Origin: a phage
Assembly: GCA_012178725.1 (NCBI GenBank)
Contig: GCA_012178725.1_3030.1
DNA: 64,000 nucleotides
Direction: 5' to 3' (one strand)
Both the position numbers and the translations under genes were made by a program. The notes under the pieces are model-generated. The model had not been told where the DNA came from. It saw only the letters and a list, made by a program, of their open reading frames with translations, and searched no databases. Below are positions 5,744-58,564 of the stretch, one piece after another (within the stretch, counting starts at the first letter, position 1; each line of letters opens with the position of its first letter).

Positions 5744-8700
5744 ATGGCTACTTTAAAACAAATACAATTTAAAAGAAGCAAAACTGCAGGAGCACGTCCT
5801 GCCGCTTCAGTATTAGCCGAAGGTGAATTGGCTATAAACTTAAAAGACCGTGTACTTTTTACTAAAGATGACCAAGGAAATATTATTGATCTGGGTTTTG
5901 CTAAAGGCGGTAGTATTGACGGGAATGTTATTCATACAGGCAATTATAACCAAACTGGCGATTATACTTTAAATGGCGTCTTCACTCAGACTGGTAATTT
6001 TAATTTAACTGGTATTGCTCGAGTAACTCGCGATATTATTGCCGCTGGGCAGATTATGACTGAAGGCGGAGAACTTATTACAAAAAGTTCAGGTACAGCG
6101 CATGTTCGTTTTTTCGATGGCAATAGTCGCGAACGTGGAATCATTTATGCCCCGGCTAATGACGGTTTAACTACACAAGTACTTAATATCAGGGTTCAAG
6201 ACTATGCCGCTGGCAGCGAAAGCACTTATGCATTTTCAGGCAGTGGCCTATTTACTTCACCTGAAGTATCAGCATGGAAATCTATTTCGTCTCCACAAAT
6301 TCTGACCAACAAAGTCATTACTAATAATAAATCTACGGGTGATTATGACATCTATTCGATGGCAGACAATGTTCCATTGTCTGAAAGCACTACTGCTATT
6401 AATCATCTTCGTGTCATGCGTAATGCCGTTGGTTCTGGTATTTTCCATGAAGTTAAAGATAATGATGGAATAACTTGGTATGCAGGTGATGGACTTGACA
6501 CCTATCTTTGGTCATTTACTTGGAGCGGCGGAATTAAATCAAGTCACTCAATTTCTATTGGTTTAACATCTGGTAGTAAAGATTATTCAATATTAGGACC
6601 ATCTAGTATTGCTTTAGGAGATAATGATACTGGATTTAAATGGCATCAAGATGGATATTATTTTAGCGTTAATAATGGAACAAAAACGTTTTTATTTAGT
6701 CCTAGCGAAACAACTAGCCTAAGAAAATTTGTAGCTGGATATTCTACTAACGGAACCGATTTAACTACTCCTCCAACTGAAAATTATGCTCTTGCTACTG
6801 TCGTGACATATCACGATAATAACGCGTTTGGAGATGGTCAGACTCTTTTAGGATATTATCAAGGCGGTAACTATCATCACTATTTCCGCGGCAAGGGTAC
6901 TACAAACATTAATACTCACGGCGGTTTGTTAGTTACTCCTGGTAATATTGACGTTATTGGTGGTTCTGTTAATATTGATGGTAGAAATAATGCTTCTACA
7001 CTGTTGTTTAGAGGTAACACAACTGGTAGTAGTTCAGTTGATAATATGACAATTTCCGTTTGGGGCAATACGTTTACTAATCCTAGTGAAGGCACCCGTA
7101 AAAATGTCATGGAAATTTCTGACGCAACTAGCTGGATGAGTTATATTCAAAGACTTACTACTGGTGAAGTAGAAATGAACGTTAACGGTTCATTTGAATC
7201 ATCCGGTGTTACTGCTGGAAATAGAGGAGTTCACACAACAGGCGAAATTTCATCTGGAGCAGTGAATGCTCTTCGCATTTGGAATGCAGATTATGGAGCT
7301 ATTTTTAGACGTTCAGAAGGTAGTCTTCATATTATTCCAACTGCTTATGGTGAAGGCAAAAATGGTGATATCGGTCCACTTCGTCCATTTAGTATTGCTT
7401 TGGATACTGGTAAGGTTGTTATTCCAGATTTAGAATCAAGTTATAACACGTTTGCTGCAAATGGCTACATTAAATTTGCTGGTCATGGCGCTGGCGCTGG
7501 TGGTTATGATATTCAGTATTCACAAGCTGCTCCTATTTTCCAAGAAATTGATGACGACGCTGTAAGCAAATATTATCCTATTGTTAAACAGAAGTTTCTA
7601 AACGGTAAATCCGTTTGGTCTTTAGGTACTGAAATTAATTCGGGTACATTCGTTATTCATCATCTGAAAGAAGATGGATCGCAGGGCCATACATCTCGTT
7701 TTAATCAAGACGGTACTGTTAACTTCCCGGATAACGTTCAGGTCGGCGGCGGTGAAGCTACTATTGCTCGTAATGGTAACATCTGGTCTGATATCTGGAA
7801 AACGTTTACTTCAGCAGGCGACGTAACTAATATTCGCGATGCTATTGCTACTCGCGTTGCCAAAGAAGGCGACACGATGACCGGCACTCTTTGGATTAAT
7901 AAAGATGCCGCTGGAATAGTTCTTAATCCTCCTTTGACCAGTGATTCATCATTTATTCGTTCTGATACGGCCGGGGCCAATAATTGGTATATTGGTAAAG
8001 GCGGTGCCGACAATGGTCTAGGTTTTTACAGTTACATTACACAAGGCGGTGTATACATAACAAATACCGGTGAAATATCGCTTTCTCCTCAAGGACAAGG
8101 AACATTTAATTTTAATAGAGACCGCCTTTATATAAATGCTAGTCAATGGGTTGCACATAAATCTGGCGCTTGGGGCGACCAATGGGGCTTAGAAGCTCCT
8201 GTATTTGTGGATTTTGGTAGTGTCAGTAATGACTGCTATTATCCTATTATTAAAGGAAAATCTGGTATTACTAACGAAGGATATTTTTCCGGCGTAGATT
8301 TTGGTATGCGACGCATTACTAATACATGGGCACAAGGTATTATTCGTGTAGGTAATCAGGAAAACGGTTCAGACCCACAAGCCATCTATGAATTCCACAG
8401 TAACGGTACTTTTTATGCCCCTAGCCTACTTAAGAGCAACAGAGTATCAGCAGGTGGCGGTGACCCTGTATGGGCCGGGCCATGTATTGTTCTTGGCGAT
8501 AATGACACAGGTCTAGTTTGGGAAGCAGATGGTATTTTCAACGCATATGCAAACGGCCAAGGTGTATTCAGTTTTAGAGCTGGTCTCGCACAAACATTCG
8601 GTAACGTAGCGTTAAACGTTAACGCAGGTATGTATGTTCGTGATAACATTGATGTTAACGACGTTTATATCCGTTCTGATATTCGTTGTAAGTCAGAAAT

Positions 8701-8995
8701 TAAGCTTATTAAGAACGCTCAAGAGAAATCTAAACTCTTAGGCGGCTATACTTATCTGCTTAAAAACTCTGTTACAGACGAAGTTAAACCATCTGCAGGT
8801 TTAATTGCTCAGGAAGTTCAAGAAGTATTGCCTGAACTTGTTTCTGAAGATAAAGAGACCGGACTGCTTCGTTTGAACTATAACGGTATTATCGGTTTAA
8901 ATACTGCTACAATCAACGAGCATACAGATGAAATCAAGGAATTGAAATCTGAAATTGCCGAATTGAAAGCATTAATTAAATCATTGATAAAATAA
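5744..8995 (+). CDS. 37: Long tail fiber distal subunit gp37 with C-terminal intramolecular chaperone domain
   Basis: 1083-aa ORF in the gene 37 position; last ~106 aa carry an SDxRxK autocleavage motif and a coiled-coil tail. Confidence 0.93.
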   Translation: MATLKQIQFKRSKTAGARPAASVLAEGELAINLKDRVLFTKDDQGNIIDLGFAKGGSIDGNVIHTGNYNQTGDYTLNGVFTQTGNFNLTGIARVTRDIIAAGQIMTEGGELITKSSGTAHVRFFDGNSRERGIIYAPANDGLTTQVLNIRVQDYAAGSESTYAFSGSGLFTSPEVSAWKSISSPQILTNKVITNNKSTGDYDIYSMADNVPLSESTTAINHLRVMRNAVGSGIFHEVKDNDGITWYAGDGLDTYLWSFTWSGGIKSSHSISIGLTSGSKDYSILGPSSIALGDNDTGFKWHQDGYYFSVNNGTKTFLFSPSETTSLRKFVAGYSTNGTDLTTPPTENYALATVVTYHDNNAFGDGQTLLGYYQGGNYHHYFRGKGTTNINTHGGLLVTPGNIDVIGGSVNIDGRNNASTLLFRGNTTGSSSVDNMTISVWGNTFTNPSEGTRKNVMEISDATSWMSYIQRLTTGEVEMNVNGSFESSGVTAGNRGVHTTGEISSGAVNALRIWNADYGAIFRRSEGSLHIIPTAYGEGKNGDIGPLRPFSIALDTGKVVIPDLESSYNTFAANGYIKFAGHGAGAGGYDIQYSQAAPIFQEIDDDAVSKYYPIVKQKFLNGKSVWSLGTEINSGTFVIHHLKEDGSQGHTSRFNQDGTVNFPDNVQVGGGEATIARNGNIWSDIWKTFTSAGDVTNIRDAIATRVAKEGDTMTGTLWINKDAAGIVLNPPLTSDSSFIRSDTAGANNWYIGKGGADNGLGFYSYITQGGVYITNTGEISLSPQGQGTFNFNRDRLYINASQWVAHKSGAWGDQWGLEAPVFVDFGSVSNDCYYPIIKGKSGITNEGYFSGVDFGMRRITNTWAQGIIRVGNQENGSDPQAIYEFHSNGTFYAPSLLKSNRVSAGGGDPVWAGPCIVLGDNDTGLVWEADGIFNAYANGQGVFSFRAGLAQTFGNVALNVNAGMYVRDNIDVNDVYIRSDIRCKSEIKLIKNAQEKSKLLGGYTYLLKNSVTDEVKPSAGLIAQEVQEVLPELVSEDKETGLLRLNYNGIIGLNTATINEHTDEIKELKSEIAELKALIKSLIK

Positions 8996-9000
8996 TAAAA

Positions 9001-9014
9001 GGGCCTTCGGGCCC
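9001..9014 (+). promoter_or_regulatory. GC hairpin with UUCG loop between genes 37 and 38
   Basis: gggcc-ttcg-ggccc directly followed by the GGAGG ribosome-binding site and ATG of gene 38. Confidence 0.5.
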
Positions 9015-9025
9015 TGGAGGTTTTT

Positions 9026-9805
9026 ATGGCAGTAGTAGGAATTCCTGGTTGGATTGGGACTTCAGCCGTCGCTGAAACAGGCCAGCGCTGGATGTCAGCG
9101 GCCTCTAGAGAATTGCGTCTAGGGAACCCATCTTGGATGTCACAATTCGCTGGACGCTCAAGAGAAATTATTCACACGCTTGGAGCAGACCATAACTTCA
9201 ATGGTCAATGGTTTCGTGACCGTTGTTTTGAAGCCGGCGGTGCTCCTATAGTGTTTAATATCACAGGCAACTTAGTATCATATTCTAAAGACGTTCCTTT
9301 ATTCTTCATGTATGGTGATACTCCTAACGAATATGTTACTTTGAATATTCATGGTGGTGTTCATATGTGGGGCCGAGGTGGTAATGGTAGCGTAAATGGA
9401 AGCCCAGGCACTAATGGTGGCGACGTAATCCAAAATGATATTGGTGGACGACTTCGTATTTGGAACTATGGCGTTATTGCATCAGGCGGCGGCGGTGGTG
9501 GTGCAGTGTCATTACAGAATAGCTGGGCACCAAATGCTACAGCAGGTGGCGGTGGTGGTAGACCGTTTGGCATCGGCGGAGGCGGCGTTAATTGGCCGGG
9601 TGGTAATGCTAGTTATGACGCGCCTGGCGGTGCCGGTTACACTTCCCAATTCGGCGGAGGCAATGGCGGTGATGCTGGAGGTCGGGGTGGAGATGGATGG
9701 GGTAATCACTTATCTAGATCCGGCGGTGGTGCTCCAGGTAGAGCGGTATTCGGTTCTTCACCATCATGGGGTGCAACAGGCACGATCTACGGTTCCTGGA
9801 TTTAA
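9026..9805 (+). CDS. 38: Tail fiber adhesin gp38, T2-type with glycine-rich motifs
   Basis: 259-aa ORF with several poly-Gly runs ([20 protein letters not shown]); T4 gp38 is a shorter chaperone without these. Confidence 0.85.
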
Positions 9806-11802: not shown

Positions 11803-12263
11803 TAGTAAAGGTCCTCAGAGTAAAGTTCTTTTTCACTACCACCACGTTCAATACGTACTTGTCCAGCGTAAGTTGCAATAATCATTGCTTCTTCACGTGT
11901 CCAATAATTACTATATTGGTCAATAAATCCTTGGTCATCATCGCAAACTTGCTGAGTAACTAATTGAGGTTTAACTACATCTAAAACTTCTGCCATATCT
12001 TTAGAATAATGACGAGCACCTGGAATAATAAGAGTTCGTCCATCTTTTAATTTAAAACGATTGGCTGCGCAAACAATCCGTCGTTGATACTTTTGGTTTT
12101 CATCCCAATATGCAGTCTGCCAACAGATTTCAGGAACTTCTTTCAGAATATCTTCTTCTGTGCATTTATAACCATGCGCTTTAAATTTTTCAACAAGACT
12201 TTCTGGAGTCTCACGAGATAAAGGAACATTCAGCATTTTTAAACGATTAATAAATGGGTTCAT
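11802..12263 (-). CDS. Hypothetical protein (153 aa), arn.x region
   Basis: ORF with overlapping start/stop junctions. Confidence 0.6.
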
Positions 12264-12589
12264 TTAAACCATCCTTTAATACGCTGCCACAAAGTTTTCT
12301 GTTGAGCTTTGTTAACACCAATTGAACGAATAACTGGTTGAGATTCCTGGAATTCTTTATAATCAGCAAGGTAAATTTCGTAAGCTGCATCCGTAAATGA
12401 ACTTATCGCTGCCATAAAATTATTGCGAATACCTACTGGAGCATCTTTACTTTCACGAATAATCATGTATTTACCAGTCTTAATCTTTACGATAGTTCCA
12501 AGATAAGCTCCATGGTACCAGATGTCCCATCCCTCTTGAGTGGGTTCTGCGCAACGACGAAGTTCATTGACAATTTCTAACTTGTTCAT
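12260..12589 (-). CDS. Hypothetical protein (109 aa), arn.x region
   Basis: ATGA overlap with upstream gene. Confidence 0.6.
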
Positions 12590-12599
12590 TATTTATTCC

Positions 12600-13235
12600 T
12601 CACAGTTCAGATGCTACAGTGATTACAGCTTCAATGTTTTCTGCCGAGCGTTTAATGTCAAGATACACATTACCGTTTTTAGCGATTTTACATGACATTC
12701 CGATGTCAGTAAATTTCTGAATATGATGTTCCATCATTTTGTATCCAAAAATTCGCATATTTCCATTATTGTTAATTTCAAAATTACGAATTCCGTGAGT
12801 ACGTTTTTCTAAAATAGCGAGATAGTTACTGCGATAAGTTTCAACCTTTTTAAGAACAAATCCATTTTCATCTAAAAGTTTTAACATGAGGTCTTTATCT
12901 TCTTCCATATCAGAAGTAATTTCACGAGCTTTACGAGTTGCTCGTTTTTTCAGTAGTTCCGGAGCATTTTCCTGTGCATATAAAGTTGCTGCGTTTGAAA
13001 TAATATCCTGAGCTTCACCTGTAATGATTAATCCATCACCAGATTTCTCCACCAGGCCTTTTTTAATCAATACCCCAATATTACTATTAACTACTGCGTT
13101 ACCTAAATCTGGATGTACCTCACGAACTTCTACAGCTGTAATGAAATCTTTCTTAGCAATGGTAATTAAAATCGCAGCAGTTTTTTCATTCAGAACATCG
13201 TTAGAAGCTTTGATGATATAAGTTACTTTAGACAT
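12600..13235 (-). CDS. motA: Middle-promoter transcription activator MotA
   Basis: 211-aa ORF; length and sequence as T4 MotA. Confidence 0.93.
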   Translation of the reverse strand: MSKVTYIIKASNDVLNEKTAAILITIAKKDFITAVEVREVHPDLGNAVVNSNIGVLIKKGLVEKSGDGLIITGEAQDIISNAATLYAQENAPELLKKRATRKAREITSDMEEDKDLMLKLLDENGFVLKKVETYRSNYLAILEKRTHGIRNFEINNNGNMRIFGYKMMEHHIQKFTDIGMSCKIAKNGNVYLDIKRSAENIEAVITVASEL

Positions 13236-13276
13236 TTTCTAATCTCCGTAATTCTGTATCAGTAGTTGATAGTTGT

Positions 13277-13306
13277 ATAGTACCACAGTATGCTTTGGTT
13301 GTAAAC
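13277..13306 (-). promoter_or_regulatory. Early promoter (GTTTAC-N18-TACTAT) upstream of motA
   Basis: Reverse strand reads GTTTACaaccaaagcatactgtggTACTAT with an A/T-rich upstream tract. Confidence 0.6.
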
Positions 13307-13321
13307 CGTTTTGTGAAAAAA

Positions 13322-13357
13322 TTTTTAAAATAAAAAAGGGAGAGCCTCGGCTCTCCC
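13322..13357 (-). terminator. Intrinsic terminator after gene 52/motA.1
   Basis: gggagagc/gctctccc stem, then TTTTTTATTTT on the - strand. Confidence 0.65.
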
Positions 13358-13362
13358 TAAAA

Positions 13363-13512
13363 TTACTGCATGACTGTGATAACTGTCATGATAACACGTT
13401 GAATTCCGAACGCAAGAAGACCTCCTGCTATGGCTGGAACAACGCCTAAACCCGCCAGTAAAATGCTACCAGATACTAATGCAGCGCTTGTAATACCAAT
13501 GAATGGACTCAT
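13363..13512 (-). CDS. Small hydrophobic ORF (49 aa) in the motA.1 position
   Basis: Hand-called MSPFIGITSAALVSGSILLAGLGVVPAIAGG...; ATGA overlap with the gene 52 stop. Confidence 0.4.
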   Translation of the reverse strand: MSPFIGITSAALVSGSILLAGLGVVPAIAGGLLAFGIQRVIMTVITVMQ

Positions 13513-14837
13513 TTGATTTCCTCTAAATCTTTGGTGTATTCGGTAACTACATCAGTAGTTTTCCAATATTCGTTTTCTTCTTTTTTAGCTTTAGCTTCTT
13601 CAGCAAGTTTCTTTGCTTCATCGGAAGTCATATGAAAAATATTCATTCCAACTAGTTTATCAACATAAGAAGAATACATATCGATTTTCGAAAGTTCTTC
13701 GGTCAGTTCTTTACGAGTTTTACCCTGTACAACAATTTCACCTGAAATTACTTTCTTAATGAAATGTGCCTTGGCAAAGGCTAAACGAAAAGCTGACTCA
13801 GTTTCTTTGATTTTGTTATCAATTCGTTTTTGGACATAAGTTTTACGAACTTCAACAAAGTCTTTAATTAAATCAACTACGTTATCGTAAACTTGTAGTT
13901 TTCCTTTCTCATTAATAACCGTAATATTCTGAGAACGACGCTCAATCAACCCGAAGTCTTTCATAATTTTTGCGTGGCGTTCTTCTTCATTATCGCTCAA
14001 AGAATATTCTTTACGGAATTTAACTTTGAATCCAAAACCGTGCTCACCGCAAGCATCATCCCATGTAATGAAGCCTTTATCTTCAAGTGGGTCTAAAATT
14101 TTACTCACATAAGTTTCACGATCATACTTATACGGAATCTCAGTGATATGCATTTGAGTTCGTGAAGTAAACTTATATGTTCCACGAATTTCATATTGCC
14201 CATCAATTTCAACGACTTCACCACGAAATTCTGGGAATTCTACCTTCGGTTTAGTTACTTTCTTTCCTTGAAGAGCTTGCAGTACAGCTTTCTTAACAGA
14301 AGAAACACTATGAGGAAGAATGTAAGTTGCATAACCAGTTGCAATACCGGAAACACCATTAAGAAGAACAGTAGGAATAATAGGCAAATAGAAAGCAGGC
14401 GGAATGTGTTCTTTATCTTGATGTACCGGAGCATATTCAGTATCTTTATATACGTTATAGAAATTTTTACTTACACGAGCAAAAATATAACGACTTGCTG
14501 CTGCTTTTTGGACGGTACGAGAACCAAAGTTTCCTTGACCATCTAACAGAGGAAAGTTATTATTCCAAGTGTTAGCCATCAAAGCACCTGCGTCTTGCGC
14601 AGAGTTTTCACCATGATGATATCCAAGGTCCGCTACACCGCCTGCGATAGAAGCGAGTTTGTGAAACTTATCTTTATTTCCTCGTGCCAAATCAAGAGCT
14701 CGAGCAATAACAAATCGTTGAACTGGCTTAAATCCATCAATCATATTTGGAATGGCACGATTTTCAACCGTGTACATAGCATAAGCCAATGCTTCATTAT
14801 CAATGATACTTTTTAAATCGCGATTATTCAGTTGCAT
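13509..14837 (-). CDS. 52: DNA topoisomerase II medium subunit gp52
   Basis: 442-aa ORF matching T4 gp52 (GyrA-like) in length and sequence as recalled. Confidence 0.95.
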   Translation of the reverse strand: MQLNNRDLKSIIDNEALAYAMYTVENRAIPNMIDGFKPVQRFVIARALDLARGNKDKFHKLASIAGGVADLGYHHGENSAQDAGALMANTWNNNFPLLDGQGNFGSRTVQKAAASRYIFARVSKNFYNVYKDTEYAPVHQDKEHIPPAFYLPIIPTVLLNGVSGIATGYATYILPHSVSSVKKAVLQALQGKKVTKPKVEFPEFRGEVVEIDGQYEIRGTYKFTSRTQMHITEIPYKYDRETYVSKILDPLEDKGFITWDDACGEHGFGFKVKFRKEYSLSDNEEERHAKIMKDFGLIERRSQNITVINEKGKLQVYDNVVDLIKDFVEVRKTYVQKRIDNKIKETESAFRLAFAKAHFIKKVISGEIVVQGKTRKELTEELSKIDMYSSYVDKLVGMNIFHMTSDEAKKLAEEAKAKKEENEYWKTTDVVTEYTKDLEEIK

Positions 14838-14841
14838 AAAT

Positions 14842-14982
14842 TTACCATACTAGTGAATGTAGTGCCATAATAACATCAGAAATGAAAAGCACGACTTGAA
14901 TTAATCCGAACATTACTCCATAATATAGTGCTACTAATAAAGTAGCAAGGGCTAATGAATAGCCCAAGATTTTCTTAATCAT
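14842..14982 (-). CDS. Small membrane ORF (46 aa) in the 52.1 position
   Basis: Hand-called MIKKILGYSLALATLLVALYYGVMFGLIQ...; start overlaps the ac stop. Confidence 0.4.
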   Translation of the reverse strand: MIKKILGYSLALATLLVALYYGVMFGLIQVVLFISDVIMALHSLVW

Positions 14983-15133
14983 TAGTAGATAACAACACAA
15001 ATGTTAAATATGCACACATACCCTGGGCTAAAGCTTGCGAAAACACGCTGCTGGCATCAATACAGATAGTTAAAACACATGCTACTATCCAACAAATAAA
15101 TGAAATAACTCCTAATAATTTTGCAATATTCAT
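14975..15133 (-). CDS. ac: Small membrane protein in the ac position (52 aa)
   Basis: Hand-called MNIAKLLGVISFICWIVACVLTIC...; GAGGAAA ribosome-binding site; size and position as T4 ac. Confidence 0.5.
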   Translation of the reverse strand: MNIAKLLGVISFICWIVACVLTICIDASSVFSQALAQGMCAYLTFVLLSTND

Positions 15134-15140
15134 ATTTTCC

Positions 15141-15221
15141 TCACTGGCGTCCGAAGACGCCTTTAGTTTTAAGATTATTACGATAGAACTGCATCACATG
15201 TTCGTTATGGAAATTACTCAT
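15141..15221 (-). CDS. stp: Stp-position 26-aa peptide
   Basis: Hand-called [26 protein letters not shown]; ATG overlaps the ndd stop (TAATG); T4 Stp is 26 aa in this position. Confidence 0.6.
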
Positions 15222-15679
15222 TAATATGCCTGCAAAACAAATTTAAAGTTATCAGCCAACATACGGTTCATTTCTTCAAGTGTTTGATACTCAGAATGAT
15301 GATTACGAGTAAACGCCAAAGCTAACTGACCTTTACCAAATCCTGTCGTCAGAGGTTTCATCTTAGAAGCAGGCAGATAAAATACTGTGTATGGAACATT
15401 GTTATTTGCAATAGTACGTGCAAGCTGAGACCGACGTTGACGAATATGACTTAGAACTGCACTGAATCCTTGCTTAGAACGCTGATTACCTACATAAAAT
15501 CGTGCAGACACACATGGATTACTAAATGGACGACCATCTAATTTACTTACTAAAAAGTAAAATCCAGGTTTAGATAAAATGTCTTTATGCGGAGTTCCCA
15601 AAAACCATTCACCGCCCTTGATTGTGCCAATAACAGTTGCGCCTGCATTATTCAGATCAGTAACAGTCATGTATTTCAT
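15221..15679 (-). CDS. ndd: Nucleoid disruption protein Ndd
   Basis: ORF-track frame trimmed to the [13 protein letters not shown] start (152 aa, GAGGAAA ribosome-binding site); matches T4 Ndd. Confidence 0.9.
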
Positions 15680-15739
15680 ATTAATTTCCTCTAAATTATT
15701 TTCTACTCCAAGGCCGCATGAATACACGCGGCCATTAAA

Positions 15740-15955
15740 TTAATCGTCGCAGTCGACGCTCAATTCCCAAAACTCTTCTACGGTATAAGTTTCAATATCA
15801 TTTTCAATACAGAAACGTTCATTACTATTGTTTGCTAAAGTAGCGTTAACTGTCATTTTCTCGCTGGTACTCTTAAGAGGTGAAATACGAATTAACTGAT
15901 CACCGTTATCTAAACAAAAAATTTCACCAACTTTTACATCTTTAAAACTTTTCAT
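15740..15955 (-). CDS. Hypothetical protein (71 aa), ndd.x region
   Basis: ORF in operon orientation. Confidence 0.55.
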   Translation of the reverse strand: MKSFKDVKVGEIFCLDNGDQLIRISPLKSTSEKMTVNATLANNSNERFCIENDIETYTVEEFWELSVDCDD

Positions 15956-15963
15956 AATTCACC

Positions 15964-16074
15964 TCAAGGAGTATAAAATCCGAATGCAGTTGTTGACCAT
16001 CCCATCCAGTATGGGAAATTTGCACCAATGTAAAACATAAGAATATAAAACCAACCGCTCAGCAAATTCATCAT
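15964..16074 (-). CDS. Hydrophobic micropeptide (36 aa)
   Basis: Hand-called MMNLLSGWFYILMFYIGANFPYWMGW...; ATGA overlap with upstream stop. Confidence 0.35.
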   Translation of the reverse strand: MMNLLSGWFYILMFYIGANFPYWMGWSTTAFGFYTP

Positions 16075-16268
16075 TTTACACCGTTCCAAATTGTTTCAAC
16101 CACGGATTTTAAGCCATTTTGATGAATGTCCATTCCAACTACCGCCATCAAATAGATTCCAACTACAACTGAACCTAAGGCAAAAATCAGCATGAAAATG
16201 AATAAAGCCGGAAAAATATTATCGAAAAACCATTCAATAAATGTAAAAGCACTGCGTTTACGCTTCAT
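16071..16268 (-). CDS. Small membrane protein (65 aa)
   Basis: ORF-track frame trimmed to MKRKRSAFTF start, which has a GAGGA ribosome-binding site; one predicted membrane helix. Confidence 0.5.
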   Translation of the reverse strand: MKRKRSAFTFIEWFFDNIFPALFIFMLIFALGSVVVGIYLMAVVGMDIHQNGLKSVVETIWNGVK

Positions 16269-16275
16269 ATTTTCC

Positions 16276-16389
16276 TCACATAAATCCAAAGTAAACGTTT
16301 AATACATCAATCATTAAAACGATTGGGAATATACTCAAAACAACTAAAATTATAATTATATTCCATATAGCTTTAATAATCTTTTTCAT
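16276..16389 (-). CDS. Hydrophobic micropeptide (37 aa)
   Basis: MKKIIKAIWNIIIILVVLSIFPIV...; GGAGGA 7 nt upstream; the track's 82-aa version begins at a TTG inside the promoter. Confidence 0.45.
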   Translation of the reverse strand: MKKIIKAIWNIIIILVVLSIFPIVLMIDVLNVYFGFM

Positions 16390-16417
16390 TTTGTGTTCCT
16401 CCGTGGTTGATAGGGTA

Positions 16418-16447
16418 ATAATACCACAGAGGAACAGTCTTGTAAAC
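16418..16447 (-). promoter_or_regulatory. Early promoter (GTTTAC-N18-TATTAT)
   Basis: Canonical T4 early promoter architecture directly upstream of the 37-aa ORF. Confidence 0.6.
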
Positions 16448-16696
16448 AACTTTTTTAAAAATATTCGTAATAAATGTGAATACCAATCACTACTGCCGAA
16501 ACTTGCGCAACCCACCACGCACAAGCAATAAGTACAGAATTAAAAATTTTCATAATAACCTCATCACAAAAGTAAATGTTAAACAAATTACTGGAATACT
16601 AATTAACCAAACAAAACACCACCACAATGAACTCATAGTTCAATCTCAGCGATTTTCATTTTATTCTCCAAATCTGTATCAGTATTTGATAGTTGT

Positions 16697-16726
16697 ATAG
16701 TACCACGGTCCTTGTGGTATGTAAAC
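16697..16726 (-). promoter_or_regulatory. Early promoter (GTTTAC-N18-TACTAT) downstream of denB
   Basis: Same architecture and conserved leader CAACTATCAAATACTGATACAGA. Confidence 0.6.
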
Positions 16727-16741
16727 CATTTTGTGAAATTT

Positions 16742-17299
16742 TTAAATGGAAAGATACCATCCATTGTAGTTGCTTTTTCTTACAACCTTACGAAGGTCTT
16801 CTCTATCACCGATGAACTTCGGAGTGTACTGGATGACACCTGGATGAATTTCTTTAGTGTTGAATATAATTATACAGTCCGCGACCTGGTGATTTAGAAT
16901 GGGCCCTAGATTTATTCCAGAACCATATGGATACTCTCCGCTGCATCCTGTTGTTACAGAAATCCAACGTGAGTCAGTTTGATGTGTCTTAACTTCTACA
17001 CGGAGCCCGCAATATTTTGGATGTGCTAAAACATCCCATGCATATGTGTACGGATCATTGACATCTTCTTGGCCTTTATTGACATATCCGCTTAGCCAAT
17101 CTGCTACAAAAAACTCTGCGTACACAGCGATACGGCATCTTTCGATAACTTCTGTCTTATCCTGATTTGGGTTTTGTTTTAAAGAGTATCTTGCAGTATC
17201 AGCAATTTTGACCTTCATTTCACCAGTCAAGTCACTGTTCGATAGGGTAAATGTCGGAATCTGAAATAGTCTCTGTAGCCCCGGATTCGTTTTCTGCAT
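16742..17299 (-). CDS. denB: Endonuclease IV DenB
   Basis: 185-aa ORF in the denB position next to rIIB; size as T4 DenB. Confidence 0.85.
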   Translation of the reverse strand: MQKTNPGLQRLFQIPTFTLSNSDLTGEMKVKIADTARYSLKQNPNQDKTEVIERCRIAVYAEFFVADWLSGYVNKGQEDVNDPYTYAWDVLAHPKYCGLRVEVKTHQTDSRWISVTTGCSGEYPYGSGINLGPILNHQVADCIIIFNTKEIHPGVIQYTPKFIGDREDLRKVVRKSNYNGWYLSI

Positions 17300-17344
17300 T
17301 TAAACTTTCCTTTATGTCGGAATCACTGATATTCATATAATAAA

Positions 17345-17369
17345 TCATAAAACAAAAGGGCCGAAGCCC
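17345..17369 (-). terminator. Intrinsic terminator (GGGCUUCGGCCC plus U-run)
   Basis: On the - strand gggcttcggccc followed by TTTTGTTTTAT, between denB.1 and denB. Confidence 0.65.
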
Positions 17370-17374
17370 TTATT

Positions 17375-17569
17375 TTATTTGAATTGTGCAATTCTTTTCT
17401 CTAGACATTCAGCATAAGATTTCATTGAGATGAACTGTGAAAGCAGCAGTTCTTGCTCAACTGCACTAACCGTTAGAAACTTTGTGCTTTCTAAAAATTT
17501 GCTCAGTGCATTAATTTTGAGCATTAATTGATCGTATTCTTCTTTTACTCGTGCTTGATAACCTAACAT
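17375..17569 (-). CDS. Hypothetical protein (64 aa), denB.1 position
   Basis: ORF with AAGGAAA ribosome-binding site. Confidence 0.55.
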   Translation of the reverse strand: MLGYQARVKEEYDQLMLKINALSKFLESTKFLTVSAVEQELLLSQFISMKSYAECLEKRIAQFK

Positions 17570-17585
17570 AATTTTCCTTAGTTAA

Positions 17586-17597
17586 GGGCCGAAGCCC
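17586..17597 (-). promoter_or_regulatory. Intercistronic CUUCGG hairpin at the rIIB 3' end
   Basis: gggccgaagccc overlapping the rIIB stop; no U-run on the transcribed strand. Confidence 0.4.
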
Positions 17598-18536
17598 TTA
17601 TTTAAATTGTTCAGTAACGTCTTCAACTACTTCATATTGGCAGGTACGCATTTTAGCATCATTGTAATCAATCGGAATTGATACTACATCACGTGGATGT
17701 ACTTTAACTTTTACAACTCGGCTGGTTGAACTGCCAAAGTGACGAATATAAGATTTAGAACACACATGCAGACCACGAGAACAAGTTTGTGTATCATCGT
17801 CATTCACACGAGTACGCGGCATTTTAACTACTTTACCAGGACTGTTATCAAAGGTATTTGAGTGACAGTCAAAGTAATTGCTGCGAACTACTTTCCAAGC
17901 ATAGAAGTAACCATCTTCTGTAATTTCAATATCGTTTGCTACCAAGAAATCAAAAAGTCGAGATACCGCTTTCTGGCTTGGGTTTTCCAGCAGATTTTCC
18001 AAGAACGGAAAATAAAATTCAAAGTTTTCGCCTTTTTCCATCGAATCAAGAATACGATCAACCAAACCAGACCGCAATTCAATATTTTGATAGAATAAGC
18101 TTCCACCTTCAATTCGAACATCACCGGAAATATATTTTTCAACAGCGCGACGAACATTAATTTTTTGTGCCGCTTCTTCCAACTTATCCGCTACAAGCAG
18201 ATTAAGAATTTCCTGGAAGTTTGAATGAGTATTAGGAGTTGCGTTATAAGTTACACCGTCAACAGTAATTGAAATGAATTTTTTAGATGCATTCCAAATA
18301 ATGTCAGATTTAGCAACTGGAGCAATAACTGCATCGCTATTAACTTTAACTGTAATATCACCACTAATAGTAACTTTAGGGCGTTTAGCTTCTTCAGCAT
18401 TTTTCAAAACACGACGGATTGTGTCAACCGATACACCTTGCCAATCAGCCAATTCCTGTTGAGTGTAATTACCACTTGAATACAGTTTAACAATTTCAGC
18501 TTGTTCGTTTTTGGTCAGGCATTTAATATTGTACAT
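17598..18536 (-). CDS. rIIB: rIIB protein
   Basis: 312-aa ORF, length and synteny as T4 rIIB. Confidence 0.95.
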   Translation of the reverse strand: MYNIKCLTKNEQAEIVKLYSSGNYTQQELADWQGVSVDTIRRVLKNAEEAKRPKVTISGDITVKVNSDAVIAPVAKSDIIWNASKKFISITVDGVTYNATPNTHSNFQEILNLLVADKLEEAAQKINVRRAVEKYISGDVRIEGGSLFYQNIELRSGLVDRILDSMEKGENFEFYFPFLENLLENPSQKAVSRLFDFLVANDIEITEDGYFYAWKVVRSNYFDCHSNTFDNSPGKVVKMPRTRVNDDDTQTCSRGLHVCSKSYIRHFGSSTSRVVKVKVHPRDVVSIPIDYNDAKMRTCQYEVVEDVTEQFK

Positions 18537-24124: not shown

Positions 24125-24339
24125 TAATAAGTTTCCTTCCAGTAAGTTGTGCCATCTTCAGTAATTTCACGAAATACACCGTAAATTGGTTGTTTATCAC
24201 CAACCTTTTCATACACATAAACCGAAGTCAAGTGAGTAAACTTAACGGTATGTTCTTTTTGAACTACTACCAAATCTGGATCGAATAGTACATCTTCAAA
24301 TTCGTCATTAGTGCAATTCTGAACAATTTTACGTTTCAT
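24124..24339 (-). CDS. Hypothetical protein (71 aa), cef position
   Basis: Size and position as T4 cef; not verified. Confidence 0.5.
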
Positions 24340-24352
24340 TACAATTTCCTCA

Positions 24353-24634
24353 TTAATTGAACAGTGGAGCGATGCGTTTCAGAAGAGTAGCAGCACCTTT
24401 AGCGAATTTTACATCATGAAAAACAGTTTCTTCTTCCGTTACAACACGAGCTTTAATGTTTTCACAATCCCAATTTTTGCGAACAATCTTCAAAAGCTGC
24501 AGTAAATCTTTACATTCAGCAATATCGATAACACATCCACGAGAATCTTCCATTATCGCACGATAACCGTAAGCCATACCATAATCATTGAAAGATTGCT
24601 CGATGATAATTAAATTTTCCATTTTATTCTCCAA
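24353..24634 (-). CDS. Hypothetical protein (93 aa)
   Basis: ORF downstream of a promoter-like element. Confidence 0.55.
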   Translation of the reverse strand: MENKMENLIIIEQSFNDYGMAYGYRAIMEDSRGCVIDIAECKDLLQLLKIVRKNWDCENIKARVVTEEETVFHDVKFAKGAATLLKRIAPLFN

Positions 24635-24719
24635 GTTGTTTTCTGTATCAGTAGTTGATATTGATATAGTACCATAATCAACTACTGATGTATATAGTTT
24701 TATGAAAAAATTTTAAACT

Positions 24720-25211
24720 TTATGCATAGCGAGCTTTGCTATAGTGTTTAATCCAACTTTCAGGAATGACTTTGTATGTTCCTAAAAATACCGCGTTGTA
24801 TAACTTAACGCCATCTTCTACCCATTGATCAGTAATGTATGCACACATAGCGCGAGTACGGTTAACAACACCTTCCTCACCTTCAGTAAATTCAAACTCA
24901 TAAGGAGCAACGAACTTAATAGCCTGACCGAGTTTCCACTTAAAGTCTACACCTACATGCGAAGTATCAATCGTTTCAATTCCTTTAGCGGGAACAGCTT
25001 TCAAAAACGCAGGCTCAAGAAATTTCCATCGAACATAACCAAACTGAGGTTTAGACATTCCATCTTTAGGAATGATACGCACTTTTACTTCAGAATCTTC
25101 ATCTTTAACACCATGTTTAAGCTGAATGCTTACGACTTCAACCAATTTTCCTGCTGCTTTAGAACGGGATTTATCAGATACACGAGCAATTTCACCGATA
25201 TTAATATTCAT
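24720..25211 (-). CDS. motB: MotB-like DNA-binding protein
   Basis: 163-aa ORF in the motB position upstream of dexA. Confidence 0.75.
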   Translation of the reverse strand: MNINIGEIARVSDKSRSKAAGKLVEVVSIQLKHGVKDEDSEVKVRIIPKDGMSKPQFGYVRWKFLEPAFLKAVPAKGIETIDTSHVGVDFKWKLGQAIKFVAPYEFEFTEGEEGVVNRTRAMCAYITDQWVEDGVKLYNAVFLGTYKVIPESWIKHYSKARYA

Positions 25212-25255
25212 AATTATCTCTCACTTGTTAAAAAGATTTTATACTCCGCAGGACC

Positions 25256-25285
25256 ATTATACTCTGGTCCCAAGAGTTTGTAAAC
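25256..25285 (-). promoter_or_regulatory. Early promoter (GTTTAC-N18-TATAAT) upstream of motB
   Basis: Reverse strand reads GTTTACaaactcttgggaccagagTATAAT. Confidence 0.6.
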
Positions 25286-25785
25286 TAGCTTACACGAACA
25301 TTAATCACTGCGCTGCGAGGAACTACAGAGTACTCTCCAGCATGAACTACGTTCAGAAGTTCAACACCATCTTCAATCCACTGATCAGTTACCCAACCGC
25401 CAATCGGATTCGCGAATGGACGACGAATATAAACTGCCTTACACAACAAATCAGTCGGGTCTTCAATTTTTTCAACTGGTGTTACATACATAGAAACTAA
25501 ATCCATATCAATATGGGATTTTTCTTGTTCTTCTTTTTCAATTTCTGTCAATAAATTGAAATCTTCTTCATAGATGATGAATGATGATACCCTTCCATAA
25601 TAGTTTCTAATTTCCATGTACACTGTACCAATGAGAATTCCGCTATTAACACTAATAACAGTAAAAGGATATCCGCCAGTTGTACCAAGAAGTTCCCAAA
25701 ACTTGCTATCAGTCGTATTCGACATTGTCTGGAAATCAATTTCAGATGGTTTTTTCATTTGATACGTAGTATTAATTTTAATCAT
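25285..25785 (-). CDS. MotB paralog (166 aa)
   Basis: C-terminus GGWVTDQWIEDGVELLNVVHAGEYSVVPRS aligns with the MotB C-terminus YITDQWVEDGVKLYNAVFLGTYKVIPES. Confidence 0.6.
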   Translation of the reverse strand: MIKINTTYQMKKPSEIDFQTMSNTTDSKFWELLGTTGGYPFTVISVNSGILIGTVYMEIRNYYGRVSSFIIYEEDFNLLTEIEKEEQEKSHIDMDLVSMYVTPVEKIEDPTDLLCKAVYIRRPFANPIGGWVTDQWIEDGVELLNVVHAGEYSVVPRSAVINVRVS

Positions 25786-25794: not shown

Positions 25795-26307
25795 TTAATC
25801 TAAGGTAATAAAGCCTTTTAATTCGGCATGCGATTTGCGAAACATTACTTGATGCCCACCAATGATAACTTGATCATCTGGCACTTCATAAATCGCAATG
25901 TACATTCCACGATCTTTTAAGTCTTCACGCTCTTCTCGAGTAAACCATCTCATTATATCATATTCACTAGCGAAAGCAAAATGATATAATGCAATAAACC
26001 ACAATGGAATATAATTTTCAATTCGTGAATAATCTTTATTCCATTTAGTTTTAATAGCATCATTAGCATTTTCAACTAATAACTTATCATCGTGCGGAAT
26101 AGGAATACTTTCATGACTTTCATAATTATCGCTATGATGATGAAATGACGATGAATTAATACCGCAAAATTTTAGCCAAGTTCGAGTTTTCATAGAATCA
26201 AATCCACGATAAGGAGTTGATTGAACACATAACTCTTGCCTAATTTTCATTATACCACTATCATCATTTAATGCGCTAAACGATGATTCAACACGATAAA
26301 TTTTCAT
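25795..26307 (-). CDS. Hypothetical protein (170 aa)
   Basis: ORF-track frame trimmed to MKIYRVESSF, which has a GAGGA ribosome-binding site; the longer start lies upstream of the promoter. Confidence 0.55.
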   Translation of the reverse strand: MKIYRVESSFSALNDDSGIMKIRQELCVQSTPYRGFDSMKTRTWLKFCGINSSSFHHHSDNYESHESIPIPHDDKLLVENANDAIKTKWNKDYSRIENYIPLWFIALYHFAFASEYDIMRWFTREEREDLKDRGMYIAIYEVPDDQVIIGGHQVMFRKSHAELKGFITLD

Positions 26308-26334
26308 TTTATTATCCTCAGTAGCTATGGTGTT

Positions 26335-26364
26335 ATAATACCACAACTGACCGAGGAAGTAAAC
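26335..26364 (-). promoter_or_regulatory. Early promoter (GTTTAC-N18-TATTAT) downstream of dexA
   Basis: Reverse strand reads GTTTACttcctcggtcagttgtggTATTAT. Confidence 0.6.
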
Positions 26365-30888: not shown

Positions 30889-31508
30889 TCAACTACCTCA
30901 ATATCATAAACTTTAAATGTTCCAAATGAATCGTGTAATTTTTCTTTTGAAATAGAAGTTATTCTATACTTTCCAATTGGAATCATCCATTCTTGTTCAC
31001 GCACAATCATCATTAAGTTATCAGTACGCTCTGAATCTAATCCATCAGTATCTTCATACGTGTACTTAAACTCAGTATTAGGAGAAGAAAGTATAATATC
31101 GCTGATATGGTCAGAATAATTAAAAGCTTTATTAGTTTTTAAGCGAAGTATTATTTTAGTAAAATATTCAGCATAAGAAAAAGAACATGCTGTGAGCAAA
31201 CTAGTAGTAAATGAATCTACTCTATTCGTTGAAAACACTTCTCCAACTTGTAAATCTTTAATAAGTTCTTCTGTTGATTTTGATATACCACGATATAGCT
31301 GATAAGGAGATTTAGTTAAATGCTTTTTAATGATTTTATTCAACTGCCTATGAAGAGCTTCATTCTTTTTGGCTTCCATACATTGCCAAAGAATTGACTG
31401 TTCAAAGTCAGTAAATTTTTCACAGACCTTTTTATACATATCATATTGAAAATCAACGCTTTCAGCTTTTATAGATAACTGTTCAACATCTGCAAGATTA
31501 ATAATCAT
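30885..31508 (-). CDS. modB: ADP-ribosyltransferase ModB
   Basis: 207-aa ORF with LYRG and EQEWMIPIG motifs; ATGA overlap with modA. Confidence 0.88.
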   Translation of the reverse strand: MIINLADVEQLSIKAESVDFQYDMYKKVCEKFTDFEQSILWQCMEAKKNEALHRQLNKIIKKHLTKSPYQLYRGISKSTEELIKDLQVGEVFSTNRVDSFTTSLLTACSFSYAEYFTKIILRLKTNKAFNYSDHISDIILSSPNTEFKYTYEDTDGLDSERTDNLMMIVREQEWMIPIGKYRITSISKEKLHDSFGTFKVYDIEVVE

Positions 31509-31534
31509 GATAGCCTCCGTATACTTCAGAAGCT

Positions 31535-31564
31535 ATCATATCATTGTTAGAAAGGAAAGTAAAC
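31535..31564 (-). promoter_or_regulatory. Early promoter (GTTTAC-N18-TATGAT) upstream of modB
   Basis: Reverse strand reads GTTTACtttcctttctaacaatgaTATGAT. Confidence 0.55.
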
Positions 31565-35850: not shown

Positions 35851-36015
35851 TTACTCTTCTTTTTCTTTAGATTCCTCTTTTTTCTTTTTAGGAATCTGTT
35901 CAGGACCTTTATTTACTACAGCGCCTGATGTTGTTCCAGTAGAGATATTTTCAGGATTACCACCTGAATCTCCAGCGACCATATCTTCTTTGATAAATTC
36001 TTTATATGTTTTCAT
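35851..36015 (-). CDS. Small ORF (54 aa), 61.1 position
   Basis: Hand-called MKTYKEFIKEDMVAGDSGGNPENIS...; start inside a 49-bp repeat. Confidence 0.4.
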   Translation of the reverse strand: MKTYKEFIKEDMVAGDSGGNPENISTGTTSGAVVNKGPEQIPKKKKEESKEKEE

Positions 36016-36061
36016 ATTAACCTCTATTCATAAAAGCATTAAAAATTTGGTCATCAATAGA
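36013..36061 (-). repeat. Direct repeat copy 1 (49 bp): gene tail, stop and next ATG
   Basis: catattaaCctctattcataaaagcattaaaaatttggtcatcaataga; 48/49 identical to 36371-36419. Confidence 0.85.
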
Positions 36062-36373
36062 TGGTGCAGTAATATTTTCTGCATCATTTAGCAAATCATT
36101 AATTTCATCAAATAGCATAACACATGTACCTTTATTTCCTGTAATTGTTACTGCGCAATTACGAACGTTTTCTTTATTAAATTTTAGGTTAATATTTTCG
36201 TAATGAAAATCCTTTAATGCTGAATATATTTTTAAAATAAAATTGTCTTTTACTACAATAAACCCAACCTCACTATTAAAACGTGGTTCATGGAAACTGT
36301 AATAAACCTTTTCATCTATAAAATCGTATGAAATTTTTTCCATTTTTAAATATGAAAATTCAGAACTATACAT
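36017..36373 (-). CDS. Hypothetical protein (118 aa), paralog A
   Basis: Ends SIDDQIFNAFMNRG, the same tail as the neighbouring 208-aa protein. Confidence 0.55.
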   Translation of the reverse strand: MYSSEFSYLKMEKISYDFIDEKVYYSFHEPRFNSEVGFIVVKDNFILKIYSALKDFHYENINLKFNKENVRNCAVTITGNKGTCVMLFDEINDLLNDAENITAPSIDDQIFNAFMNRG

Positions 36374-36419
36374 ATTAATCTCTATTCATAAAAGCATTAA
36401 AAATTTGGTCATCAATAGA
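36371..36419 (-). repeat. Direct repeat copy 2 (49 bp)
   Basis: See copy 1. Confidence 0.85.
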
Positions 36420-37796: not shown

Positions 37797-37825
37797 AACA
37801 ATCTCCTCATTTAACCAACAAGACT

Positions 37826-37855
37826 ACTATACCATAGTCTCGTCAGCTTGTAAAC
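37826..37855 (-). promoter_or_regulatory. Early promoter (GTTTAC-N18-TATAGT) upstream of dmd
   Basis: Reverse strand reads GTTTACaagctgacgagactatggTATAGT; the -35 overlaps the gene 41 stop. Confidence 0.55.
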
Positions 37856-43272: not shown

Positions 43273-43524
43273 TTAAAACTTAACAAATAACTTTAAAGCA
43301 TCTTCAGTTTTAATTCCTTTTCTTACACCCATAACAGAAATTGGCTGTGACTGAAATTTTCCTTTACCATTATAAATTTCTAATCCAGTCACCATTCCAT
43401 TTTGTTCTATAATACCGTAAGTGTTACCTTCATTTTCAAATTCTTTAACTTTAAAAAGTTTATTCGCTTTTTCTGCGTTAACAACTTTTAAATTTTGAAT
43501 AAAATTAGTTTGAATATTTTTCAT
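43273..43524 (-). CDS. Hypothetical protein (83 aa)
   Basis: First gene after a duplicated promoter-leader cassette. Confidence 0.55.
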   Translation of the reverse strand: MKNIQTNFIQNLKVVNAEKANKLFKVKEFENEGNTYGIIEQNGMVTGLEIYNGKGKFQSQPISVMGVRKGIKTEDALKLFVKF

Positions 43525-43582
43525 TTTGTGTTCCTCCGTAGTTGATAGTTGTATAGTACCACAGAGGAACGGTCTTGTAAAC
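43524..43582 (-). repeat. Promoter-leader cassette copy 2
   Basis: About 55 bp nearly identical to 16389-16447, including -35, -10, ribosome-binding site and ATG. Confidence 0.75.
43552..43581 (-). promoter_or_regulatory. Early promoter (GTTTAC-N18-TACTAT)
   Basis: Reverse strand reads GTTTACaagaccgttcctctgtggTACTAT. Confidence 0.6.
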
Positions 43583-43654
43583 AGTTTTGTGAAAAAATTT
43601 TTAATGAATCCAAAAGGTCCAGAATCATCTGTTTTTCATAAGTATAGATTTATA

Positions 43655-58444: not shown

Positions 58445-58474
58445 ATCAAATCCTCAAAGGCAATTCATATGTTA

Positions 58475-58504
58475 ATAATACCACGGTTTGAACTTGTTGT
58501 AAAC
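58475..58504 (-). promoter_or_regulatory. Early promoter (GTTTAC-N18-TATTAT)
   Basis: Reverse strand reads GTTTACaacaagttcaaaccgtggTATTAT. Confidence 0.6.
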
Positions 58505-58564
58505 AACTTTGTGAAAAATATTTTAGGGAATGATAAGAAGGGAACGATAGCTTAGAATGGTAAT

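Follow-up and report, generated by a model that had tools for sequence, protein, structure and literature searches.

Early promoter and leader cassettes repeated at motA and other early genes of a T4-like phage

The motA promoter region and related sites in the window

The promoter region of motA was analyzed in a 64,000-nucleotide stretch of phage DNA (contig GCA_012178725.1_3030.1 of NCBI GenBank assembly GCA_012178725.1), which is referred to at its full length as the window, together with other early promoters that share with it a short sequence block downstream of the -10 element. The window belongs to a T4-like phage (genus Tequatrovirus) whose early-gene strand is the minus strand here. 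The following features lie at the motA locus, where SD denotes a Shine-Dalgarno sequence and +1 the transcription start.

13337..13358, minus strand: terminator-like G+C-rich hairpin with a T run (9-bp stem, 6 GC pairs, TTTTTTATTTT tail)
13307..13326, minus strand: UP-like A/T-rich tract AAAAATTTTTTCACAAAACG, 5' of the -35 of the motA promoter (PmotA)
13277..13306, minus strand: PmotA core, with -35 GTTTAC at 13301-13306, an 18-nt spacer ending in TGG, and -10 TACTAT at 13277-13282
13253..13276, minus strand: 24-nt block at motA, with discriminator ACAACT at 13271-13276 and predicted +1 at A 13270
13253-13270, minus strand: predicted first 18 transcribed bases of motA, AUCAACUACUGAUACAGA
13236..13270, minus strand: 35-nt motA leader, G-poor and predicted to be unstructured, with SD GGAG at 13244-13247
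12600..13235, minus strand: motA (211 aa), served by this promoter

The terminator-like hairpin follows motA.1 and lies immediately 5' of PmotA, which is base-for-base identical to T4 PmotA (T4 163644). The surrounding bases 12000-18000 (motA-rIIB) are 96.7% identical to phage T4 and keep its gene order (52 - motA.1 - motA; rIIB - denB - ndd.6...ndd), while 24300-25300 is 100% identical to phage AR1, and 43000-44000 is 99.9% identical to PhiZZ30 and 97% identical to T2. The window has 15 matches to the pattern GTTTAC-N18-TAnnAT (14 minus-strand and one plus-strand), where 0.29 would be expected, in line with the 12 or more such promoters counted in an earlier first-pass annotation of this DNA. 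A position-weight-matrix scan gave 17 early-promoter-like sites, all on the minus strand, adding 30199 and 37826 to the pattern matches. No enrichment was observed in a generic sigma-70 scan of the window (TTGACA/TATAAT; 61 matches vs. 70 expected); the T4-specific promoter pattern was the only one enriched. The lone plus-strand match, at 7804-7833, lies in the late tail-fibre gene region, has no UP tract, TGn, or SD/ATG context, and is probably a chance match.

Four minus-strand sites, named here by the position of their -10 elements (13277, 16697, 24666, and 43553), had been described in the first-pass annotation as sharing the -35 GTTTAC, the -10, an upstream A/T tract, and a downstream block of 20-25 nt. 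The -10 and the upstream tract were indeed common to all four: the extended -10 and -10 read TGG+TACTAT at 4/4 sites, and the tract TTCACAAAAC is found unchanged at two sites and with one mismatch at the other two, with AAAAATTTTTTCACAAAAC or near variants upstream of the -35. The other two elements turned out to be shared by three sites each. The -35 GTTTAC is replaced at the 24666 site by ATATAC (4/6 bases) at the correct spacing, and the 24-nt block, ACAACTATCAACTACTGATACAGA, is exact at 13253-13276 (minus strand) and differs by one base at 16673-16696 and by three at 24642-24665, where no match is expected by chance, whereas the 43553 site has only its first 15 nt (ACAACTATCAACTAC, 43538-43552), followed directly by the SD GGAGG.

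Similarity among the copies is confined to particular segments. The 14 variable spacer bases agree at 3-6/14 positions from copy to copy, which is the random level; in contrast, the 20 nt 5' of the -35 agree at 12-19/20 positions, or 17-19/20 for copies whose ungapped register is undisturbed by an indel, and the 15 nt that follow the -10 agree at 11-15/15. The PmotA UP tract is common to the 13277 site itself, 43553 (19/20), 24666 (17/20), and 16697 (with an indel). An independent repeat search recovered a 77-nt family with five copies (13252, 16672, 24641, 43528, and 58450) and an 84-nt pair (16378/43513) with 86% identity. These repeats of 77-84 nt end at or just past the ATG, and none enters the coding sequence beyond the first codons. 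The first-pass annotation had allowed that the likeness of the leaders might be explained wholly by two larger duplications; however, the repeats are only 77-84 nt long, which rules out larger duplicated gene cassettes as the source of the similarity, and the block is common to copies with unrelated spacers.

At all of the sites, which are on the early-gene strand, an SD and an ATG follow 19-38 nt downstream of the predicted +1. The sites correspond to the T4 early promoters at 163644 (motA), 167057 (ndd.6), 6601 (cef/motB spacer), and 27051 (gene 43/imm.1 spacer). They have the -35/-10 spacing, TGn, UP tract, and position of T4-type early (sigma-70) promoters and are, as judged from the sequence, the early promoters already known in T4 for motA, ndd.6, and small open reading frames (ORFs) nearby. 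The 96.7% identity to T4, the orthologous T4 sites, and a 7-nt rule for the start (below) all bear out the earlier reading of canonical T4 early promoters. The features at the other sites of the family are as follows.

16673..16745, minus strand: denB/ndd.6 promoter, with -35 GTTTAC at 16721-16726, -10 TACTAT at 16697-16702, and predicted +1 at 16690; block copy with one mismatch at 16673-16696
16659-16669, minus strand: SD GGAGAATAAAA of the ndd.6 region, a perfect fit to the RegB/S1 consensus
16633-16659, minus strand: mini-ORF MKIAEIEL* (8 codons) between the ndd.6 promoter and ndd.6
24642..24708, minus strand: motB/AR1-type orf010 promoter, with -35-like ATATAC at 24690-24695, -10 TACTAT at 24666-24671, predicted +1 at 24659, and ATG at 24622; block variant at 24642-24665
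43522..43595, minus strand: promoter 3' of gene 43, before an RB51ORF048-type ORF, with -35 at 43577-43582, -10 at 43553-43558, and predicted +1 at 43546
43538-43552, minus strand: partial block of the 43553 promoter, with its SD GGAGG at 43533-43537 and ATG at 43524
16387..16460, minus strand: ndd.4-type promoter, 84-nt partner of the 43553 cassette (86%), with -35 at 16442-16447, -10 TATTAT at 16418-16423, predicted +1 at 16411, and ATG at 16389
58450..58526, minus strand: fifth member of the 77-nt family (65%), with the UP tract, -35, and extended -10 shared and a different leader

The stop of the mini-ORF overlaps the ndd.6 start (ATGA), and its first 12 nt are those of the T4 imm.1 start, suggesting that the promoter cassette was copied along with a stub of a neighbouring gene, a piece of imm.1.

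The predicted start site and the two halves of the block

Primer extension has placed the starts of three other T4 early promoters at map units 150727, 41225, and 35662 (PMC6024815), and a scan of the T4 genome showed that each of these published starts equals the -10 end minus 7. Because the 7-nt rule holds at these three mapped promoters, we placed +1 by analogy at the central A of ACAACT-A-TCAAC, which predicts starts at 13270, 16690, 24659, and 43546 in the window. By the same rule, 6 bases of the block would therefore be untranscribed discriminator and 18 would be initial transcribed sequence. The leaders are then 22-37 nt long and end in a GGAG-type SD.

T4-type early promoters all share a weak consensus around +1, which the first half of the block (ACAACTATCAAC) fits best. 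In 29 T4 early promoters that are not family members, the majority sequence after the -10 is A-n-(no G)-C-Y-T-A-T-C-A-A-M-T-A, at 0.1-0.65 bit each, and the block agrees with it at almost every position. The G content of the leaders was 8.8%, vs. 18.8% for the genome. Furthermore, when IMG/VR contigs were picked by the UP/-35 sequence (TTTCACAAAANNGTTTAC) alone, N4-CTATCAA recurred downstream of the -10 across a variety of T4-like phages. As far as these alignments go, the first half is a class-wide feature around the start site. It has been noted that T4 early promoters have "additional regions of consensus" beyond the canonical elements (Hinton 2010, PMC2988021), and logos of these promoters extend to the start site. 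Most likely, selection for start-site choice and for initiation or escape of the host RNA polymerase would maintain the first half.

The second half, TACTGATACAGA, marks one paralogous leader lineage that is confined to Tequatrovirus. The -10 plus block was found in 3135 copies in 539 phage records, about 5.8 per genome, all in Tequatrovirus-type hosts. In T4, the full block stands before motA, ndd.6, imm.1, and e.8 and in the cef/motB spacer, and a shortened or partial block precedes nrdC.10, nrdC.8, and frd.3. Even inside one orthologous gene group the second half varies, including by 3-nt indels. For block copies, the annotated phage collection was far more informative than IMG/VR, in which an exact scan for the second half gave mostly chance matches in unrelated phage genes and few T4-like copies.

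Probable descent and exchange of the cassettes, and other explanations

T4 Pimm.1 and Pndd.6 are identical over 57 nt, from the -10 through ATGAAAATCGCT to codon 4, which therefore argues for common descent and not for convergence. A scan with GGTACTATACAACTATC of metagenomes, IMG/VR, T4, and the window yielded 69 unique T4-like promoters, which fall into six classes by spacer; the classes are unrelated, and five of them each precede 3-4 different genes. Conversely, a frd.3-type gene, which lies outside the window, is preceded by four spacer classes in different phages. At this gene the leader and upstream tract are constant and a 16-nt spacer is swapped (e.g., L070, L097, L163, L164, L169, and L195; T4 146846), as if the spacer alone had been exchanged by short-patch conversion.

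The motA locus itself exists in two forms. Phages with a MotA 100% identical to that of the window have a different motA promoter and leader, and homology resumes at ACGGAGATTA. This alternative upstream region (IMG/VR L036, L037, and L040; about 150 nt) differs from window positions 13236-13356 in ORF, spacer, and leader; it resembles the versions of distant relatives (MotA 50-69% identical) and looks ancestral. Both promoter alleles circulate in Tequatrovirus and are common, the alternative being present in about 137 phage records at at least 95% identity. In two further records (MZ234027.1 and MZ234031.1), two pieces about 490 bp apart match the motA promoter region, the interval is annotated as a "hypothetical protein", and an extra ORF appears to have been inserted between the promoter cassette and motA. 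A comparable junction was found 3' of gene 43, where the window and T4 are the same up to ...CAACTAC, then diverge, and rejoin at the imm.1 ATG; the divergent stretch consists of GGAGGAAC and an 83-aa ORF in the window and of TGATACGGATTTGGAGAATGAA in T4. The junctions at gene 43/imm.1 and at motA therefore place the breakpoints in conserved patches, namely UP/-35, -10 plus start region, and SD plus ATG.

The copies are thus seen directly in the sequences to be mosaics. We consider it probable, at roughly 0.8, that the repeats are early promoter and leader cassettes of about 80 bp that are alike by descent and by recombination among the copies. Each site would join a sigma-70-dependent promoter to a short 5' leader, an SD, and a start codon in one dispersed repeat of this length, and the copies would descend from one another and still exchange segments via homologous recombination or gene conversion. 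Crossovers would fall in the three conserved patches, which would leave the flanks identical and the spacers and downstream ORFs different. The second half of the block may then serve as a G-poor, unstructured spacer that keeps a RegB-cleavable SD open. The sequences would then clearly illustrate how small early genes are mixed in T4-type phages. Under this reading, the conserved UP/-35 and -10/start-site patches would act as linkers, through which a gene could gain a new spacer or neighbour without losing expression, and for annotation the repeats would stand for strong early promoters and leaders and not for an RNA gene or a riboswitch-like element.

Several points weigh against the cassette reading. 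The +1 is placed by analogy and promoter activity is taken from orthology to T4; recombination is read from mosaic patterns, and the roles proposed for the two halves (start-site/escape optimization and an open leader) are likewise deduced. The invariance of ACAACTATC arises partly by construction, as the scan pattern contained that sequence. A perfect copy or more has survived in 478/539 genomes, and some sequence-specific role of the second half is possible. Finally, the published promoter-early stem-loop (PeSL) concept, to which the cassettes are compared below, is loosely defined.

The first-pass annotation had taken the conservation of the transcribed leader as a hint of a shared 5' RNA element. 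This suggestion did not hold up, as the leaders are unstructured by fold prediction, there is no Rfam match, and 6/24 block bases are untranscribed. Folded from +1, the leaders gave minimum free energies of -0.2 to -4.7 kcal/mol and z-scores of -1.2 to +1.1, and z < -2 was reached by 0/33 leaders in T4 and 0/15 in the window; with leader z-scores near zero, a stable 5' RNA structure was ruled out. An Rfam search of the whole window gave nothing at the gathering score and only chance-level matches, on the terminator hairpin near motA. A narrower version of the idea is that a discrete cis-acting RNA signal resides in the transcribed bases of the block (AUCAACUACUGAUACAGA) and defines a small immediate-early regulon (motA, ndd.6, imm.1, e.8, orf010, and others). 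Its reader might be an unknown factor of early shut-off or a protein such as S1, RegB, or RNase G/E; alternatively, it might act as a 5' stabilizer. The 18 nt are near-identical in three window copies and occur in about 6 copies per genome in 539 genomes next to unrelated spacers, a RegB-type SD follows every copy, and the isolated 24-mer folds into a small hairpin with a z-score of -2.8. In the real leader context, however, this 4-bp AUCA/UGAU hairpin, the sole structural candidate, reaches just -0.6 to -1.9 kcal/mol, and the z-score of the whole leader is near zero. Moreover, natural variants (ACT-GATACGG, with 3 nt deleted, ACTAATACGG, and ACTACTAATACGG) abolish the stem without compensation, by losing 3 nt or turning UGAU to UAAU, within one orthologous gene group and even before one same gene. 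The published RegB/S1 determinant lies 3' of GGAG and not upstream (PMC3014915). In addition, motA works with a wholly different leader in phages with identical MotA, and motA-specific regulation by the leader was ruled out, as these phages use another promoter and leader. On balance, a discrete RNA signal of this kind seems improbable.

Pairing of the leader with 16S rRNA, as in an epsilon-like translation enhancer, would agree with a C/A-rich leader located 5' of the SD, and epsilon-like enhancers are known in phage leaders. We find it scarcely credible here, because the best 18-mer duplex with E. coli 16S rRNA has -11.4 kcal/mol, vs. -12.4 +/- 1.8 for shuffled sequences, and the longest Watson-Crick match is 5 nt, vs. 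6.4 in shuffles. Given unstructured leaders, a broken stem, no Rfam match, and no 16S pairing, a structured or rRNA-pairing element was therefore rejected; a site for a sequence-specific protein is conceivable, but none of the evidence points to one. At the DNA level, the palindrome ATCA-N5-TGAT at +1 to +13 could be an operator at which a DNA-binding protein of the phage or the host modulates some of the early promoters, perhaps in the shut-off of early promoters, a process that is not understood according to a review (PMC3014915). The 4+4 palindrome lies exactly at the start site, and a second, inverted copy in the 24666 spacer leaves two copies flanking the -10. Such a palindrome is weak, however, and it is present in about 6 of roughly 36-40 T4 early promoters, which cannot explain a general shut-off; the 3-nt deletion variants alter the half-site spacing, and the inverted copy at 24666 is equally explained as one of many promoter-spanning hairpins, all of which makes an operator very unlikely. 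That each promoter reached the same optimum independently, with neither common descent nor exchange, would account for the agreement of the first 14 bases with the class consensus, but it would hardly produce identity over 24-57 nt that includes non-consensus bases and the first codons of unrelated ORFs, a second half limited to one genus, and spacer modules that are also shared in mosaic fashion; we give convergence next to no credence.

Predicted read-through hairpins, further repeats, and comparison with known systems

Spacers of T4 early promoters were compared with the sequences downstream of them. At least 7 perfect bp were found in 10/36 own pairs vs. 4.3% of cross pairs, and the duplex energy was -10.9 kcal/mol for own and -7.1 kcal/mol for cross pairs (p = 0.002). 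RNA folded from the -35 onward, as in read-through transcripts, had z < -2 at 16/33 T4 promoters, and z-scores of -3 or lower (-3 to -6) were obtained at 7/15 window promoters, with the spacer pairing to the sequence just past the -10 or to the SD. In both sets, fold prediction gave no strong structure for the promoter-initiated RNA. The hairpins predicted for read-through RNA in the window are as follows.

16394-16436, minus strand: hairpin at the 16418 promoter
24647-24689, minus strand: hairpin at the 24666 promoter
25211-25285, minus strand: hairpin at the 25256 promoter
26307-26364, minus strand: hairpin at the 26335 promoter
31508-31564, minus strand: hairpin at the 31535 promoter
37796-37855, minus strand: hairpin at the 37826 promoter
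43530-43570, minus strand: hairpin at the 43553 promoter

The predicted probability that the SD is unpaired at 16418, 43553, 26335, and 31535 was 0.10-0.33 in read-through RNA, vs. 0.73-0.96 in promoter-initiated RNA. At 43553, a spacer arm (43558-43570) is predicted to pair with a leader/SD arm (43530-43542) in read-through RNA only (-19.7 kcal/mol), and at 16418 the arms 16423-16436 and 16394-16407 are predicted to sequester the SD; the read-through z-scores of these two sites are -5.5 and -4.4, and the SD is unpaired at 0.18/0.10, vs. 0.85/0.87 in promoter-initiated RNA. At 24666, the -10 lies between the 13-bp arms of an inverted repeat (24677-24689 and 24647-24659); the read-through fold has -20.2 kcal/mol and a z-score of -4.6, and the hairpin leaves the SD uncovered. 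The 16697 spacer holds a 6-bp stem (UACCAC/GUGGUA), but neither 13277 nor 16697 has a read-through structure of this kind, and therefore the hairpin does not explain the block. The ndd.4 hairpin differs between the window and T4 at six positions, four of them in the stem and all C-G to U.G, one that adds a pair, and one in the loop; the pair-preserving substitutions hint at selection at the RNA level.

Inhibitory hairpins with an embedded promoter are known at the translation starts of T4 genes e, soc, 49, and I-TevI (PMC3014915). The likeness is that the SD would be paired in read-through RNA and free in RNA from the gene's own promoter, which lacks the 5' arm; the difference is that those hairpins embed late promoters, whereas the window sites embed early ones. 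A wider design, in which an early promoter sits inside a hairpin made of its own spacer and leader/SD and formed only in read-through RNA, is offered tentatively, and we regard it as less likely than not. If true, translation of many small early genes, and their exposure to RegB, would be limited to transcripts started at their own promoters; the scheme of the four late-promoter genes would extend to about half of T4-type early promoters, and cassette shuffling would also use the promoter-spanning sequences as its patches of homology. The frequency of hairpins that hide the ribosome-binding site in read-through transcripts of early promoters may merit a specialist's time.

Other repeats were also observed in the window. 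A G+C-rich palindromic hairpin, AAGGGCCGAAGCCCTT, has six intergenic copies, some of which are terminator-like on both strands, and these are probably the intergenic stem-loops typical of T4-type genomes.

17356-17381: AAGGGCCGAAGCCCTT copy
17584-17609: AAGGGCCGAAGCCCTT copy
46456-46481: AAGGGCCGAAGCCCTT copy
48403-48428: AAGGGCCGAAGCCCTT copy
53983-54008: AAGGGCCGAAGCCCTT copy
57622-57647: AAGGGCCGAAGCCCTT copy

A direct repeat of 49 nt (36013-36061 and 36371-36419) has 98% identity between its copies, which lie 358 nt apart. It corresponds to the C-terminus SIDDQIFNAFMNR shared by two adjacent minus-strand ORFs, together with their SD/ATG junction, and these ORFs appear to be tandem partial paralogues.

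36017-36373, minus strand: ORF of 118 aa with the shared C-terminus
36375-37001, minus strand: ORF of 208 aa with the shared C-terminus

The long tail-fibre genes contain internal direct repeats, with 68-nt and 28-nt units near 1400-2330 (1403-2326) and GGY-rich 25-nt units near 7480-9733.

Among known systems, the T4 early promoters (Pe, e.g., PmotA), reportedly compiled by Liebig & Ruger in 1989 and by Miller et al. in 2003, match the sites in GTTTAC, 17/18-nt spacing, TGn, TAnnnT, and an A/T-rich UP tract, and also in lying on the early-gene strand, where the SD and ATG of a small early gene follow directly. There is no essential difference; the -35 of the 24666 copy is degenerate (ATATAC). 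The RegB/S1 consensus GG*AGRAYARAA is described for early T4 SD regions (Durand et al. 2006, via PMC3014915). The SDs after the block fit this consensus: GGAGAATAAAA is a perfect fit twice (at 24622-24632 as well as in the ndd.6 region), and GGAGATTAGAA of motA (13237-13247) fits GGAGRAYARAA at 10/11 positions. The motA mRNA is a classical RegB substrate. The consensus lies 3' of the 24-nt block, which is thus outside the known determinant.

A search of the accessible literature found neither the block sequence, nor a paper naming the 24-nt block, nor a genome-wide map of T4 transcription starts, but the promoters and the PeSL phenomenon to which it belongs have already been published. As described in two papers (Arbiol et al. 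2010, PMC2839356; Comeau et al. 2014, PMC4122927), a PeSL is a conserved segment of about 100 bp from an AT-rich tract to the SD/ATG, with a stem-loop upstream of the -10, between the -35 and -10, overlapping the -10, or downstream of it. Dispersed copies lie in plastic early regions, at boundaries of insertions, deletions, and replacements between close relatives, with crossovers mapped between the -10 and the SD/ATG (ndd.4/.5 being the T4/PST example), and recombination between neighbouring PeSLs is reported to give mini-circles (Arbiol et al. 2010, PMC2839356).

The window sites fit this description of a cassette, as far as their sequences tell. Repeats of 77-84 nt with AT-rich tract, promoter, SD, and ATG occupy many intergenic sites, and each of the four sites has a stem-loop: the terminator at 13337-13358, which is the "stem-loop" part of the PeSL-type cassette at motA, and those in the spacer at 16697, flanking the -10 at 24666, and spanning the -10 at 43553 (13 bp). 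Cassette boundaries are likewise seen in the motA upstream region, in the gene 43/imm.1 spacer, and in the mosaic of spacer classes and genes. PeSL stem-loops "overlapping the -10" have been described for RB49, and the read-through hairpins overlap with these. The differences are that the published T4/PST stem-loop lies just 5' of the promoter, whereas many hairpins here span it, with the spacer pairing to the leader/SD; that the authors read the stem-loops as terminators or attenuators and not as SD-sequestering; and that mini-circle intermediates are described for the published systems. The shuffling mechanism would be that of the published PeSL model, to which the present analysis adds confirmation and detail.

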